A stretch of DNA of 64,000 bases from Candidatus Poribacteria bacterium (GCA_026702755.1 JAPPBX010000049.1:12057-76056), one strand, 5' to 3'; shown: positions 48,074 to 56,833, counted from the first letter of the stretch. Program-made: numbers and translations. The notes: generated from the letters alone by a model not told the origin.

Positions 48074-48209
48074 TTTTTTTATAGTTGTCGGTTGTCAGAA
48101 GAATGGCTGTCGGTTTCCATCAGCAGTCAGCGGTCAGTCGCATAAGGCAGTGAAAGCGTCGGTAAATACCACGCGTCCTCTTAACTCTCACTGCGAGGCA
48201 AACTGATAA
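48074..48209. repeat. operon-internal GTCRG-rich spacer repeat plus AACTCTCACTGCGAGGCAAACTG box
   Basis: TGTCGGTTGTCAG...GCTGTCGG...CAGTCAGCGGTCAGTC. The box is also at 55383..55405. Confidence 0.6.
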
Positions 48210-49499
48210 CTATTCATCGTTAACATCCAAGGCGAATAATTCCCGTAACGCTTGAACATACTGTCCGTGATCAGCATCGCCATCGTTAACGGCGCAGCGA
48301 AGGTTCTCCATGGGATGGTGGAGCAGTTTTTTGACGATTGCTTGGGTCATAGAGGCGACAGCTGCCTCCTGCTGATCAGAAAGTGTTGCCTTGTAGAAAC
48401 ATGCTTGCAATTCAGTGTCAGCGATCTCTCGAAACTGCTGGTGGAGTGCTTTAATAGTGGGATTGACCTGAAAGATTTGCAATTGGTCGTAGAACCGCTT
48501 CGCCTCCTCAGCGACAATCTGTTCTGCTCGGGTTGCTTCCTGTTGTCGATCCTTGAGGTTGGAGGCGACAACGGCTTCGAGGTCGTCAATATTATACAGG
48601 AAGGCGTGGTCAATCTTACTCACATCGGGTTCTATATCGCGTGGTACAGCGATGTCAATGAGAAACATATACCGGTGCTTCCGTTTCCGCATAATGTTAG
48701 CGAGTGGCTGTCGTTTGATAAGATAATCCGGGGCATCGGTAGAACTAATAACGATGTCAGCATCAATGAGGAAACCGAGGTCGCTATTATAAGGGAGAGG
48801 TGTGCCGTTAAACTTCTCGGCGATTTTGACCGCCCGCTGGTATGTACGATTCGCGACAATCACGTTAGAGACACCATTTGCAACGAGATGCTTTGCTGTG
48901 AGTTCACTCATTTCACCTGCGCCGACAATCGCAACAGTCTTACCCTCAAGTGTATTGAAAATCCTTTTGGCGAGTTCAACGGCGGCGTAACTAATAGAAA
49001 CGGCACCTGTAGCAATAGTTGTCTCGGAGCGGATGCGTTTGCCAACGCTGAAAGCTTTGGTGAAAAGACGATTGAGAACCGTACCCGTGCTACCTGACGC
49101 ACGAGAGAAGTCGTAAGCGGCTTTGATTTGCCCCAGTATTTGGGATTCACCGACGACCATAGAATCAAGGCTCGATGTCACCCTGAAGAGATGTTGGATC
49201 GTCTCCAAGTTATAGTGAACATAACTCCATTTCTTGAGCGATTCCATGTCAATCTGGTGGTAACGGGAGAGGAATTGAACCAATATCTTGGCAGCTGCAT
49301 CGGCACTCCGCACGGGGTTCGCGACCGCATAGATTTCTACGCGGTTGCAAGTAGAGAGAATGACGGCTTCTTGAACCTGATCAGATTCACGAAGGTGCTG
49401 GAGGGATTCAGTAAGTTGTTCTTCGGAAAACGCCAATCTTTCCCTGAATTCAATGGGAGCGACATGATGGCTGGTTCCGACGGAAACGATTTGGTTCAT
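48210..49499 (-). CDS. hemA: glutamyl-tRNA reductase
   Basis: Start set at MNQIVSVGTSHHVAPIEFRE with a GAAGGA ribosome-binding site. Catalytic Cys in STCNRVEIY. Confidence 0.85.
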   Translation of the reverse strand: MNQIVSVGTSHHVAPIEFRERLAFSEEQLTESLQHLRESDQVQEAVILSTCNRVEIYAVANPVRSADAAAKILVQFLSRYHQIDMESLKKWSYVHYNLETIQHLFRVTSSLDSMVVGESQILGQIKAAYDFSRASGSTGTVLNRLFTKAFSVGKRIRSETTIATGAVSISYAAVELAKRIFNTLEGKTVAIVGAGEMSELTAKHLVANGVSNVIVANRTYQRAVKIAEKFNGTPLPYNSDLGFLIDADIVISSTDAPDYLIKRQPLANIMRKRKHRYMFLIDIAVPRDIEPDVSKIDHAFLYNIDDLEAVVASNLKDRQQEATRAEQIVAEEAKRFYDQLQIFQVNPTIKALHQQFREIADTELQACFYKATLSDQQEAAVASMTQAIVKKLLHHPMENLRCAVNDGDADHGQYVQALRELFALDVNDE

Positions 49500-49605
49500 T
49501 CCTTCTACCAAAAAATCTAAAAACGTGAAATGTTGTTTATATGCTTCGTAAATTATATCACATGTCAGCGGTTGTGTCAAATTTAGAATGGGTAACTGGA
49601 ATTAT

Positions 49606-51075
49606 TCAATTGTCCTGTGGTTTCTCAATATCTTGATGTTTTTGCTCGGTCTGTTTTCCGACATCTGGATTTAGTTCCCTAGCTTTTTCATAGTCAACTC
49701 GTGCTTCTTCTTGCAATCCGAGTGCCTGCTTTACCAGACTGCGGCTGTAGTAGGCGAGTGCACAATCCGGTTTGAGGTTGATAGTTTCAGTATAATCCTC
49801 TATAGCATCACGATAGTGGCTTTCTGTCTGCTCCATATTCCCCTGATCCGTTTCCAATTTACCGAAGTAAAATTTTGCATCACCACGATTTCTGTAAGTA
49901 TCGGTATCCTCCGGTTCAAGCAAAAGTTTCGCGTAATGGCGCATTAGAGAATCCTCGGCATACTCCGCTGAATTTAATCTAAGGGCTTCAGTACAATCGT
50001 CAATCGCTGCACAGTAGTACTCTTGTGCTTGCTCTTGGTCGCCTTGGGAGGCTGCGGATTGCGCCAGTTTAGTTTTCGTATAACCGCGATTACTATAGGC
50101 ACCTGCATACTCTGAGTTAAGTTTGATGGCTTTATTAAAGTCTGCAATCGCCTCGTTATAGTAGTTCAGTGCCTGTTCCACATTTCCCTTAGCCACCTCA
50201 GATTCACCTAATTTAGTCTTCGCATAACCGAGAATTCTGTCATCCTGTCCTAAACCTTCTTCCGCGTCGAGTTTGTTAGCTGTATTAAAGTCTGCAACAG
50301 CTTCGTGATAATAATGTTGTGCTTCCTCTGCGTTTTCCTTGACTTCTTCAAATTGGCCGAGATGTAACTTTGCAAGACCGCAAATTCCGTAAGCAGCAGC
50401 AAACTCCGGATTTAGCTCAACGGTTTTATCAAAAGCATCTATCGCTTCAGCATGGGCACCATGAAGAAATTTGAATTGTCCTTGAGCGTAGTAAGTATAG
50501 GCACGTATAGGATCTTTTTTCCGAAACTGTGCTAAAGGTTCGGTTAACTCCGATTGAGAAAGCAATACCTTGAGAGCGTTTGAGGGAACAGCAACACCGT
50601 AAGTTCCTGTGCTGCCAGCAGCAACACCTATAACTTCACTTTTACTGTTGAGCATAGGACCACCACTCATGCCCCCCACATACTCAGCGTCCACCCAAAA
50701 CTTTTTGCTGTCACCGCGGATACCCTGTATGATTCCGGTTGTGACCTTGTATTCAGTTTCTGGGAAACCTAAAGTAAAAACTCGTTCGCCGATCTGAACA
50801 GCGTCACTGTTCCCAAGTGGAAGAGGTTTACCTTCAGCCAACACCTTTAAGATAACCAAGTCATTTTTAAGATCAAACGTTGTTACACCGTCTACTTCCC
50901 ACACGGTTTCTCCATCAACTGACTTCGCAGAAACCAGTCCCTCCCCATAAACAGCATGGATGTTGGTAACAACCTTTTCAGGTTCTACAAAGAATCCACT
51001 ACCGACACCAACGAGTTTTCCCGATTCCGCCTCAATCGAGCGGATTTGTACAATAGATTCTCCGTTATGTTTCAT
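49606..51075 (-). CDS. trypsin-like serine protease with TPR repeats (paralog 3, no signal peptide at chosen start)
   Basis: Triad contexts TNIHAV, NDLVILK and GGMSGGP. Long TPR C-terminus. Start set at MKHNGES to avoid a 150 bp overlap with the upstream gene. Confidence 0.7.
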   Translation of the reverse strand: MKHNGESIVQIRSIEAESGKLVGVGSGFFVEPEKVVTNIHAVYGEGLVSAKSVDGETVWEVDGVTTFDLKNDLVILKVLAEGKPLPLGNSDAVQIGERVFTLGFPETEYKVTTGIIQGIRGDSKKFWVDAEYVGGMSGGPMLNSKSEVIGVAAGSTGTYGVAVPSNALKVLLSQSELTEPLAQFRKKDPIRAYTYYAQGQFKFLHGAHAEAIDAFDKTVELNPEFAAAYGICGLAKLHLGQFEEVKENAEEAQHYYHEAVADFNTANKLDAEEGLGQDDRILGYAKTKLGESEVAKGNVEQALNYYNEAIADFNKAIKLNSEYAGAYSNRGYTKTKLAQSAASQGDQEQAQEYYCAAIDDCTEALRLNSAEYAEDSLMRHYAKLLLEPEDTDTYRNRGDAKFYFGKLETDQGNMEQTESHYRDAIEDYTETINLKPDCALAYYSRSLVKQALGLQEEARVDYEKARELNPDVGKQTEQKHQDIEKPQDN

Positions 51076-55248: not shown

Positions 55249-55419
55249 AATGTAATGGTTTTCGGTTTTAATAGTTGTCAGTTTTCAGTACGATTTTTCT
55301 GCGAAAAATCTTTCAGTTATCGGTTAAGTACTTGTAATGGTTACCTTTCCTGTTCCTGCCATAAGAGACCTCTTTAACTGATAACTCTCACTGCGAGGCA
55401 AACTGGCGACTGACAACTA
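55249..55419. repeat. operon-internal spacer repeat (GTCAG-rich plus AACTCTCACTGCGAGGCAAACTG box)
   Basis: TAGTTGTCAGTTTTCAGT ... ATAACTCTCACTGCGAGGCAAACTGGCGACTGACAAC. Confidence 0.6.
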
Positions 55420-56706
55420 TTAAGAGAGATTCGCCAGTACCTGTGTTGCGGCTTCAATGGTTGCGTTGATATCCTCGTCGGAGTGGACTAAGGAGACAAA
55501 TCCTGCTTCAAATTGGGACGGGGCAACATAGACACCACGCTCTACGAGTCCCCAAAAATATTGCTGGTAACGTTCCGTATCCGCCGTGCGGGCACCGTCA
55601 GCATCCGTGACGGTTTCCGGTGTAAAGTAGAGCATCAACATCGAACCGACTCGACTATGCCATGCATCAATGCCGTGTTTTTGGGTTGCCTCAGCGAGCC
55701 CCTCCGCGAGCGCAGAGGCACTGCGCTCAAGTTGTTTATAAATCCCCGGTTCAGCGAGCTTTTTCAGGGTTGTTATCCCTGCAGTAACGGCTAACGGATT
55801 GCCAGACAGCGTCCCTGCCTGATAGACATCGCCTTCCGGGGCAACACACTGCATGATGTCCCGCTTTCCGCCGTACGCCCCAACAGGTAAACCGCCCCCG
55901 ATAATCTTCCCTAAACAGGTCATGTCGGGCGTGACGTTATAGTAGGATTGGGCACCGCCATAAGCCACCCGAAAGCCTGTGATGACTTCATCGAAGATAA
56001 GCACAATGCCGTGTTCTTCAGTGATTTCACGGAGTTGATTGAGGTAACCTTCATGTGGTGGGATGATGCCCATATTGCCCATAATCGGTTCGAGGATGAG
56101 ACAGGCAATTTCGTCCGGATTGGCTTCTATCGCTTCGCGGACAGCATCAGGGTCGTTAAAAGGCACGGTGAGCGTATTGCGTGCGAAATCCTCTGGCACA
56201 CCGCCGCTATCGGAAAGTCCAAACGTTGCGACTCCGGAGCCAGCTTTTGCCAATAGGTAATCCACATGACCGTGATAGCAGCCGTCGATTTTGAGGATTT
56301 TATCGCGACCGGTATATCCACGAGCGACGCGGATTGCGCTCATTGTGGCTTCAGTTCCTGAGTTGACGAGGCGTACCTGCTCAATCGAAGGCACCGCGTT
56401 TGCGATGGTTTCGGCGAGTTCCGTCTCTAATGTCGTCGGGGCACCAAAACTGGTACCGCTCGATGCTGCTGAAGTGATAGCCTCCACAACGCTTGGATGT
56501 GCATGCCCCAAAACCAACGGACCCCAAGAAGCAACATAATCAATGTATTCGTTTCCATCAATGTCGTATATTTTTGAACCCTCGCCGCGGGCAATGAAAC
56601 GGGGATGTCCACCGACTTTGCTGAAGTTTCGGACAGGACTGTTGACCCCACCTGGGATAACTCGTTGTGATTTTTGCCATGCGGCTAAGGATTTACTGCT
56701 CTCCAA
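55420..56706 (-). CDS. hemL: glutamate-1-semialdehyde 2,1-aminomutase
   Basis: Start reassigned to TTG at 56706 (GGAGGA ribosome-binding site 8 nt upstream), giving N-terminus (M)[25 protein letters not shown] as in canonical HemL. PLP-lysine region present. Confidence 0.85.
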
Positions 56707-56833
56707 AGTGTTTCCTCCAATTTTTTTATGGCTATCGGCTCTCGGTTGTCGGCTTTCAGCAAAGAGGTTCCTGATAAACAAGAGCCCTCTTTCTGACTGC
56801 TGACGGCTATTCTTTTGATTGCTGACAGCCAAT
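56707..56833. repeat. operon-internal spacer repeat (GTCGG/CTGAC inverted arrangement)
   Basis: GGCTATCGGCTCTCGGTTGTCGGCTTTCAGC...CTGACTGCTGACGGCTATT...GCTGACAGCC. Open in one frame, which caused the over-long ORF call. Confidence 0.6.

Follow-up and report, generated by a model that had tools for sequence, protein, structure and literature searches.

Dispersed mosaic palindromes in four intergenic spacers of a heme gene cluster from Candidatus Poribacteria

Background

Poribacteria are uncultured sponge symbionts. A stretch of 64,000 nucleotides from Candidatus Poribacteria bacterium (GCA_026702755.1, JAPPBX010000049.1:12057-76056), hereafter called the window, which a protein look-up assigned to Candidatus Poribacteria, contains a cluster of co-directional heme genes in which four intergenic spacers are rich in GTCRG pentamers and palindromic. 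The question which this locus raises is whether such spacers belong to the heme genes or to the genome at large. The initial annotation had considered both possibilities, proposing that the spacers were either repetitive extragenic palindromic (REP)-like elements or determinants of processing, attenuation or stability which set differential expression within a heme operon. The comparison with other Poribacteria described here indicates that the four spacers are very probably members of a dispersed family of mosaic palindromic intergenic repeats, junk-like or mobile in nature, and not a control device specific to heme genes.

Results

Four spacers built on a common palindromic plan

Every gene of the region is encoded on the minus strand. 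The spacers are designated S1 (hemA-hemC, 48074-48209), S2 (between the polyprenyl synthase gene, PPS, and sirC, 54177-54267), S3 (hemL-PPS, 55249-55419) and S4 (hemB-hemL, 56707-56833), and they were confirmed at these coordinates. The proposed motif enrichment was equally confirmed, as GTCRG and CYGAC together occur 14 times in 525 nt against 1.3-1.8 expected, an excess of about 8-fold (Poisson p about 1e-8 to 1e-10), with six occurrences in S1, two in S2, two in S3 and four in S4. The motifs had been described as tandem units, which is a loose description, since each arm of the palindromes contains no more than about two 7-nt units, and these are degenerate. In the window, no period-7 array reached 12 of 14 matches, strict 7-nt-unit regular expressions and period-7 autocorrelation detected no arrays in the window because its arms are too short and degenerate, and Tandem Repeats Finder reported a single related array.

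A 23-mer said to be shared by two spacers has exactly two copies in the window, both on the minus strand and matching exactly, at 48183-48205 in S1 and at 55383-55405 in S3. In mRNA sense they start 4 nt past the hemA stop and 14 nt past the hemL stop, respectively. A third copy was absent from the window within 3 mismatches, and from 100 shuffles. The minus-strand sequence of the first copy is CAGTTTGCCTCGCAGTGAGAGTT, whose 21-nt core is the dispersed module discussed below.

Read on the minus strand, the four spacers follow a common plan. The sequence (A)TAGTTRTCAG stands right after the stop codon and is continued by further CAGTYNT-type units; the middle holds an optional 21-nt module, CAGTTTGCCTCGCAGTGAGAG, then TTAAAGAGG, a centre and a CCTCTTAAC-like sequence; the end consists of CTGAYAA-type units closing in CAACTAT, an A-rich run and the next start codon. 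The arms are composed of short 7-nt units, of CAGTYNT type on one side and of the complementary CTGAYAA type on the other, and often finish in AATAGTT...AACTATT beside a T-run and an A-run. Between them, the inner stem TTAAAGAGG...CCTCTTAAC encloses a variable centre, and the centres fall into recurring subtypes. Two modules are optional, namely a side hairpin of the form CTGAAAG-stem-CGCAG-stem-CGTACTGA and the 21-nt module itself, which is placed in either arm or in both and whose 15-nt core can occupy the loop of the side hairpin.

Dispersal of the family among Poribacteria

The core 21-mer was found as an exact match in at least 120 stretches from 32 Poribacteria species in a scan of one genome per prokaryotic species. 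Among the matches listed, all derive from metagenome-assembled genomes or chromosomes of Poribacteria, three being labelled only 'uncultured bacterium'; a single chromosome contributes up to 10 loci, which are spread over it. Once oriented, the copies from other genomes display the same mosaic palindrome as the window; the 21-mer stands in both arms in L106, and its 15-nt core lies in the side-hairpin loop in L023, L082 and L096 (L numbers designate loci in other genomes). The suggestion of REP-like elements is borne out by this distribution, as the modules occur in at least 32 species of Poribacteria and in gene contexts of every kind.

The dispersal extends to the other parts of the elements. 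In blastn-short searches, all four window spacers match 47-120 other loci through their arms, and six control spacers of the window gave weak matches only. The search with S1 returned 236 matches in 120 other Poribacteria loci, covering the arms and the 21-mer and not the centre; S2 returned 133 matches in 69 loci, S3 506 in 120 and S4 89 in 47. When an arm profile built solely from other genomes was run on the window, its nine best matches fell within S1-S3, where they mark both ends and face opposite strands. Non-orthologous loci share the centres of S2, S3 and S4; the S2 centre matches L046 (25 nt, 88%) and the S4 centre matches L078, L065 and L028 at E about 1e-4. The side-hairpin module recurs in many loci.

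A census with a whole-element regular expression proved too rigid, giving 37 matches in 897 kb and none in the window. The Rfam 15 covariance models produced no match, whether at the gathering threshold for the whole window or at E <= 1 for 47900-57000, and none of the papers searched describes these repeats in Poribacteria. A viral origin of the 21-mer was rejected, as no match was found on viral contigs in IMG/VR; the idea that it keeps the 7-nt phase (21 = 3 x 7) was also discarded, since the surrounding CAG positions are not 7-periodic. A variant of the 21-mer core, TTGCTTCGCAGTGAGAATAG, lies at 30340-30360 in a different repeat, beside a CCACCCCTCTGGGGTG hairpin, and the same pairing is seen in L124.

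Anatomy of the individual elements

The element of S1 (48074..48212, minus strand) fills the hemA-hemC spacer, with arm-profile matches at both ends on opposite strands, and reaches into hemA, whose stop TAG (48210-48212) belongs to the terminal ATAGTTATCAG. In mRNA sense, its first half consists of the 5' arm, the 21-mer module, TTAAGAGG and a centre found nowhere else; CTGAC-type units follow, then a GCCATTCTT junction, the 3' arm CTGACAACCGACAACTAT, an A-run and an ATG which lacks a Shine-Dalgarno motif. The element of S2 (54177..54267, minus strand) fills the PPS-sirC spacer and lacks the 21-mer. It runs from the 5' arm ATAGTTTTCAGTTTTCGG to the 3' arm CTGACCACTGACAACCATTAAG right before the ATG, with a GATTAACCAAAG-type centre enclosed by the inner stem TTAAAGAGG...CCCTTTTAAC.

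In the hemL-PPS spacer, the element of S3 (55249..55422, minus strand) combines the 21-mer module, an inner mini-stem TTAAAGAGGTCTCTTA and a side hairpin at 55286..55316 (minus strand), which in mRNA sense reads CTGAAAG-GATTTTT-CGCAG-AAAAATC-GTACTG (CTGAAAGATTTTTCGCAGAAAAATCGTACTG). Its terminal inverted repeats are AATAGTTGTCAG (55270-55281, plus strand) and CTGACAACTA (55410-55419). In the minimum free energy fold, the terminal inverted repeats, as AATAGTTGTCAG and CTGACAACTATT, close the whole spacer (z = -3.67), in a stem which takes in the hemL stop and ends 24 nt ahead of the ATG.

The element of S4 (56707..56833, minus strand), which fills the hemB-hemL spacer, is a compound palindrome (z = -3.17). 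Its units are of GGCTGTC/GCCGTCA type on the 5' side and GCCGACA/GCCGATAGCC on the 3' side, around an inner stem AAAGAGG...CCTCTTT; an A-run and an intact Shine-Dalgarno motif (GGAGG) follow, before the TTG start of hemL. Where junctions are compound, as in CAGAGGAATRGTTGTCAG, one element seems to be nested within another's arm.

Gain, loss and rebuilding at orthologous sites

Orthologous heme clusters differ widely in these spacers. In L096 and L124, which share about 90% PPS identity with the window, elements occupy the same four spacers with different module content. The hemA-hemC element of L096 lacks the 21-mer and is made of GACCAGT/AACTGGA units, its PPS-sirC element carries the 21-mer inverted in the 3' arm, and its 7-nt units comprise five GGTTATC/AGTTATC and four RACCAGT. 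In L125 (86% PPS identity) and L126 (83%), the hemL-PPS spacers measure only 19 and 12 nt and read TAAAGGAATTGA-ATG, and the hemA-hemC spacers measure 20 and 8 nt and read GATCAGGA-ATG. Judged from their sequence, these are empty sites with ordinary Shine-Dalgarno motifs. Filled and empty sites thus measure 171-178 nt versus 12-19 nt at hemL-PPS, and 107-136 nt versus 8-20 nt at hemA-hemC.

More distant relatives also have short spacers at these positions, save for L130 (154 nt) and L131 (145 nt) at hemL-PPS. The L131 spacer (66% PPS identity; 1442-1589) holds a different palindrome of 7-nt units (ACGTAAT... / ...ATTACGC, z = -6.5), in which ACGTAAT/ACGTGAT units face ATTACGC/TTCACGT units. 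From this different palindrome it seems that the group generally tends to form hairpins of 7-nt units, the sequence of the units being specific to the lineage.

Turnover is also visible between strains. L001, a strain at about 97% nucleotide identity to the window, has an identical S2 and two substitutions in S1; its S4 has gained 14 nt in the 5' arm along with 16 nt in the 3' arm, and its S3 is largely replaced and lacks the 21-mer. The filled sites of L096 and L124, the empty sites of L125 and L126 and the module differences of L001 together show that the ancestor of a single sub-clade acquired the elements in its heme cluster, and that they are gained, lost and rebuilt in intergenic DNA far faster than the flanking genes change. 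Elsewhere in the same two strains, a unit of about 72 nt, present as a single copy in the convergent gap after the TP_methylase/HEM4 gene of the window (about 45586-45659), forms 3-4 tandem copies in L001 (19618-19831). For the remainder of the window, the contigs recovered were all from the identical strain, and they showed no fresh insertions.

These length differences bear on the idea that the arrays are simple-sequence repeats which arose in situ by polymerase slippage, with no mobility, their palindromy being due to selection or template switching. A local-slippage origin has been proposed for the heptameric repeats of Xanthomonas and Nostoc (the slippage hypothesis is cited in PMC4692102), and intergenic repeats of heptamers are known to lie between the same genes of related species and to vary extensively in length (PMC4692102). 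The data agree in that insertions and deletions are multiples of 7 nt (+14 nt in L001; offsets of 7 nt from S1 to S3) and unit sequences are lineage- and locus-specific (GACCAGT in L096, ACGTAAT in L131). However, slippage cannot put the same 21-mer, side hairpin and centre subtypes at many unrelated loci in many species, and the arms in the window are only about two units long. As an account of the whole family it is unlikely; slippage probably explains the changes in arm length and not the origin of the elements.

Signals at the level of DNA

The orientation of the 21-mer was surveyed in 126 copies from other genomes, drawn from the at least 120 stretches. Between co-directional open reading frames (ORFs) there are 77 copies, 35 in sense and 42 in antisense, which gives no strand bias; six copies lie between convergent ORFs, 11 between divergent ones and nine nominally inside ORFs, and 23 are unclassifiable. 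Restriction of the motif to operons is contradicted by the same figures, as 17 of the 94 classifiable copies stand between convergent or divergent genes.

The predicted folds point in the same direction. Of 72 co-directional spacers, 33 have the more stable fold in sense and 39 in antisense (Wilcoxon p = 0.67), and each of the four in the window folds better in antisense. Against dinucleotide shuffles, the proposed hairpin potential of 56707-56833 is real (z = -3.2) and that of 55249-55419 is similar (z = -3.7), S1 and S2 being weak (-1.2 and -0.85); for the S1 element (48074..48212), values of z = -2.1 in sense and -3.7 in antisense were also obtained. The 6-bp stem of the side hairpin is 94.9% paired over 28 copies, with double-sided changes at all six pairs, and its changes involve Watson-Crick pair types only, without G-U. 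The two arms of an element do not covary in an element-specific manner, because by a crude measure their agreement equals that with the arms of other elements (0.524 observed versus 0.523 permuted).

A search for terminator-like sites between 45 and 60 kb found 15, none of them in any of the four spacers, and the stems of the elements are followed by A-runs and not U-runs. The spacers were consequently rejected as intrinsic terminators or attenuators, as none has a G+C-rich stem with a U-tract. Small-peptide coding was likewise dismissed, since there is no long ORF and the longest stop-free stretch covers 43 codons. The absence of strand bias, of a preference for the sense fold and of a U-tract terminator, together with the Watson-Crick-only stem changes, fits a palindrome which is maintained or generated at the DNA level and argues against an RNA element tuned to this operon.

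The hypothesis that the spacers evolved as operon-specific RNA regulators, acting through processing, attenuation or stability on the relative expression of the heme genes, can be weighed on these grounds. It finds support in the two spacers whose sense folds are much more stable than those of shuffles (z = -3.2 and -3.7), in the location of the elements exactly in promoter-less intra-operonic gaps in three related genomes, and in the effect of REP and bacterial interspersed mosaic elements (BIMEs) on mRNA stability (PMC3184786). Against this, the same modules stand in unrelated contexts in 32 species and are missing from the orthologous spacers of L125 and L126; no U-tract terminator exists, folding is equal or better in antisense, and the 21-mer favours neither strand; and module content differs even between strains at 97% identity. 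The initial annotation had itself named two observations which would speak against regulation specific to the operon, namely copies outside operons throughout the genome and absence in close relatives, and both were made. Its proposal of determinants setting differential expression is therefore highly unlikely, given dispersed motifs, empty sites in relatives, no terminator-like site and no strand bias.

Translation starts downstream of the elements

The cluster genes without a Shine-Dalgarno-like motif are hemC, PPS and sirC, and each directly follows an element; hemA has AAGGA directly before its ATG. The orthologs of PPS and hemC at empty sites have AAGGA or AGGA, and sirC lacks the motif in empty-site relatives too. 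A further explanation is thus that the elements are translational coupling devices, in which the hairpin brings the upstream stop close to the downstream start and the A-rich tail replaces the Shine-Dalgarno motif for hemC, PPS and sirC. Besides the distribution of these motifs, the course of the S3 stem, with the hemL stop included and 24 nt left before the ATG, speaks for it, and coupling has been suggested for the hairpins of cyanobacterial 7-bp repeats (PMC2670836). On the other hand, sirC does without the motif in the empty-site relatives as well and hemL keeps it after S4, S1 and S2 fold weakly in sense, and many copies elsewhere precede a normal AAAAAGGAG site or sit between convergent or divergent genes. 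Coupling is accordingly very unlikely to be what the elements are for.

Gene organisation of the heme cluster

Gene identities were assigned by Pfam on called genes, all on the minus strand. In transcription order, hemB (56834-57805, ALAD) comes first and is followed by hemL (55420-56706, Aminotran_3; TTG start at 56704-56706 with GGAGG just upstream), PPS (54268-55248, polyprenyl_synt) and a sirC-like ORF of 391 aa (53001-54176, NAD_binding_7). A Uma2-family ORF lies downstream of the latter, then a Cytochrom_C_asm ORF and a Trypsin_2+TPR ORF, which directly precedes hemA (48210-49499, GlutR; stop TAG); hemC (47147-48073, Porphobil_deam) and a TP_methylase+HEM4 fusion complete the series.

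Elements had been reported from nearly every gap of the cluster, which proved too broad, as they occupy only four of the eight non-overlapping gaps between 45.6 and 58.8 kb. Nor does the description of the cluster as one operon hold. A sigma70-type promoter with 12/12 matches (TTGACA-17-TATAAT with TG extension, 49580..49552, minus strand), which is context outside the repeat family, stands upstream of hemA and is kept in L096, and a second sigma70-type promoter with 11/12 matches lies at 53026..52998 (minus strand). Because of these two predicted promoters the cluster is taken not to be a single operon, the one before hemA splitting it into separate transcription units; hemA-hemC-hemD probably form a unit of their own, because the promoter before hemA is perfect and is kept in L096.

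The heme cluster of the window is interrupted by the Trypsin_2+TPR ORF, which is missing from the orthologous clusters of L096, L124, L125 and L126, and the Uma2-family ORF is missing from those of L096, L125 and L126 and present in L124. The two ORFs lie at 49606-51075 and 52012-52875 (minus strand), and a 42-bp coding tandem repeat is found inside the Uma2 ORF (52078-52206). The 3' part of the sirC-like ORF contains a REP-like GTAGGAGGGGTTTGTAACCCC at 53101-53200, in a tile which matches five other Poribacteria loci.

Other repeats of the window

Other dispersed repeat families fill most of the large gaps of the window (3209-3584, 10474-11178, 24565-24980, 33562-33629 and 41853-42313), and tiles of these regions match other Poribacteria loci. 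They include hairpins followed by CTAC (e.g. GGTGCGGTTAGGAAACCGCACTACAGG), which on the opposite strand resemble GTAG-tagged REPs, and a 33-nt tandem pair, GTGCGGTTGCAAACCGCACCTACCAGATTTGGGG. A recurrent C-run motif, AACCCCCTAAATCCCCCAACCCCCCATATCCCCCCTTATCAGGGGGG, is found at 5520-5568, 9828-9880, 31289-31346 and 42060-42100 as well as in other Poribacteria loci. Three tandem ORFs of about 872 aa each, presumably paralogous, occupy 16438-24564 (plus strand); the gaps after the first and the third have a near-identical start, GTACGTTTCGGTCAG, and both contain the hairpin GGCAGGCACAAGACCTGCCCCTACAAT.

Discussion

A probably mobile or junk-like repeat family

The interpretation of the four spacers as members of a dispersed repeat family rests on their dispersal and modularity, on gain and loss at orthologous sites, on turnover between strains and on the lack of strand-specific signatures. 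The elements would likely spread by non-autonomous mobility or transposition, or by gene conversion among copies, and arm length would likely change as 7-nt units are gained and lost by slippage. Within the heme cluster they would be co-transcribed passengers. The long hairpins should not end transcription, because they lack a U-tract. Incidental effects on mRNA stability, processing or translational coupling could nonetheless occur: by analogy with REP and BIME elements, which can affect mRNA stability (PMC3184786), the hairpins could make upstream mRNA more stable, or an RNase specific for double strands could cut them.

Several observations weigh against this interpretation. Within the 64-kb window the family is confined to the heme cluster, and L096 and L124 carry elements in the same four gaps, which would both also fit positional preference or a retained function; moreover, the elements may have taken over a role in translation, as three of the four downstream genes (hemC, PPS and sirC) lack a Shine-Dalgarno motif. 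The junctions of empty (L125, L126) and filled sites are too diverged to align, so a target-site duplication is not definable. The copies of the 21-mer per genome are known only as 'tens', from the at least 120 stretches listed, and the 28 side-hairpin copies behind the pair counts were picked by hand and eye. Finally, among the ten window ORFs scanned, no transposase with matching ends and no gene for a Y1-type or REP-associated tyrosine transposase (RAYT) was found, and only a TnpB-like ORF turned up. That ORF (60557-61903, minus strand) combines OrfB_IS605 with a Cas12f1-like TNB domain and has no adjoining TnpA, and its flanks lack 7-nt-unit arms.

The identity of the 21-mer across species has another possible cause, namely recognition by a conserved protein, such as a DNA-uptake receptor, a nucleoid or gyrase-type binding protein or a domesticated transposase, the palindrome being its carrier. 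At least 32 species share the 21 nt letter for letter amid variable surroundings, and the module has no strand bias; the 15-nt core GCCTCGCAGTGAGAG recurs in the side-hairpin loop, and a diverged variant is embedded in the different repeat at 30340-30360. Binding of BIMEs by IHF and gyrase (PMC3184786) offers a precedent. Yet the loci were chosen by exact match, so that the identity stems partly from ascertainment, the module comes and goes at orthologous heme spacers and is not conserved site by site, no candidate protein was found, and the copy number, apparently tens per genome, is low for an uptake signal. Such recognition is quite unlikely to account for the family.

A bolder variant of the mobile-repeat interpretation is also unlikely. 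In this scenario the 21-mer, and perhaps the whole palindrome, would be an active, tiny mobile or gene-converting unit, kept letter-identical across at least 32 species by a putative dedicated protein (a RAYT-like enzyme or another sequence-specific reader), and its insertions would in places have swapped Shine-Dalgarno-dependent initiation (hemC, PPS) for hairpin-assisted coupling. If it were true, a selfish repeat would now be part of the translation of essential operons.

Comparison with known repeat families

The element family is an addition to the known class of short interspersed palindromic repeats, which includes REP/BIME elements, MITEs (miniature inverted-repeat transposable elements) and the heptamer repeats of cyanobacteria. 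One close parallel concerns 7-nt units. The short tandemly repeated repetitive (STRR) or heptameric sequences of Nostoc, Anabaena and Calothrix are likewise intergenic and often arranged as inverted arrays which yield hairpins between co-transcribed genes, as between hupS-hupL and pecE-pecF, and in both groups the repeats lie between the same genes in related species and vary widely in length and sequence (PMC2670836, PMC4692102). Head-to-tail 7-nt units in intergenic DNA are clear in L096 and L131 and degenerate in the window, and inverted arrays form hairpins between co-directional genes. Unlike STRRs, the poribacterial elements have an inner stem that is conserved, centres that recur and a pair of optional modules, their arrays in the window are only about two units long, and both phylum and unit sequences differ.

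The REP/BIME elements of E. coli and REPINs are also high-copy extragenic palindromes in mosaic clusters, which occur within operons, are transcribable and vary between strains (PMC3184786, PMC3116915). The poribacterial elements are short, dispersed, extragenic imperfect palindromes as well, but their arms are A+T-rich 7-nt repeats, whereas a REP is a single G+C-rich stem. What keeps them out of the RAYT-type REP class is the missing GTAG/CGTC tag, which directly flanks the stem there (PMC3733652); the sequence at the ends of their arms is AATAGTT/AACTATT, and CTGAAAG and CGTACTGA border the side hairpin.

MITEs such as Nezha of Anabaena and Nostoc resemble the elements described here in their length of 90-180 bp and in the high stability of their predicted fold; they end in inverted repeats and leave empty versus filled orthologous sites in relatives (PMC3184786). 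The poribacterial family shares terminal inverted repeats at a size of about 100-400 bp, S3 being bounded as AATAGTTGTCAG...CTGACAACTATT over 171 nt, and has empty and filled orthologous sites at hemL-PPS and hemA-hemC. It differs from Nezha in that neither flanking direct repeats nor a parent insertion sequence with the same ends were found, and in being modular and variable inside, with no single consensus. The BOX elements of pneumococci are modular too (A-Bn-C-like), hairpin-forming, intergenic and transcribed (PMC3184786); sequences, host and module logic differ.

The 21-mer module on its own invites a last comparison. Elhai et al. 2008 reportedly described small dispersed repeats (SDR) of Nostoc punctiforme as near-identical dispersed units of 21-27 nt nested in other repeats, and the 21-mer seems to behave in a similar way, although it has no sequence relationship to them and its exact insertion boundaries are not definable.

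Conclusions

For annotation, the four spacers should be masked as dispersed repeats and not treated as heme-specific riboregulators. Poribacteria genomes are crowded with several families of short structured repeats, and because the present elements differ between strains at 97% identity, they can serve as markers for strain typing. With this family, hairpins of 7-nt units between co-transcribed genes are on record for a second group, phylogenetically remote from the cyanobacteria with their heptamer repeats.

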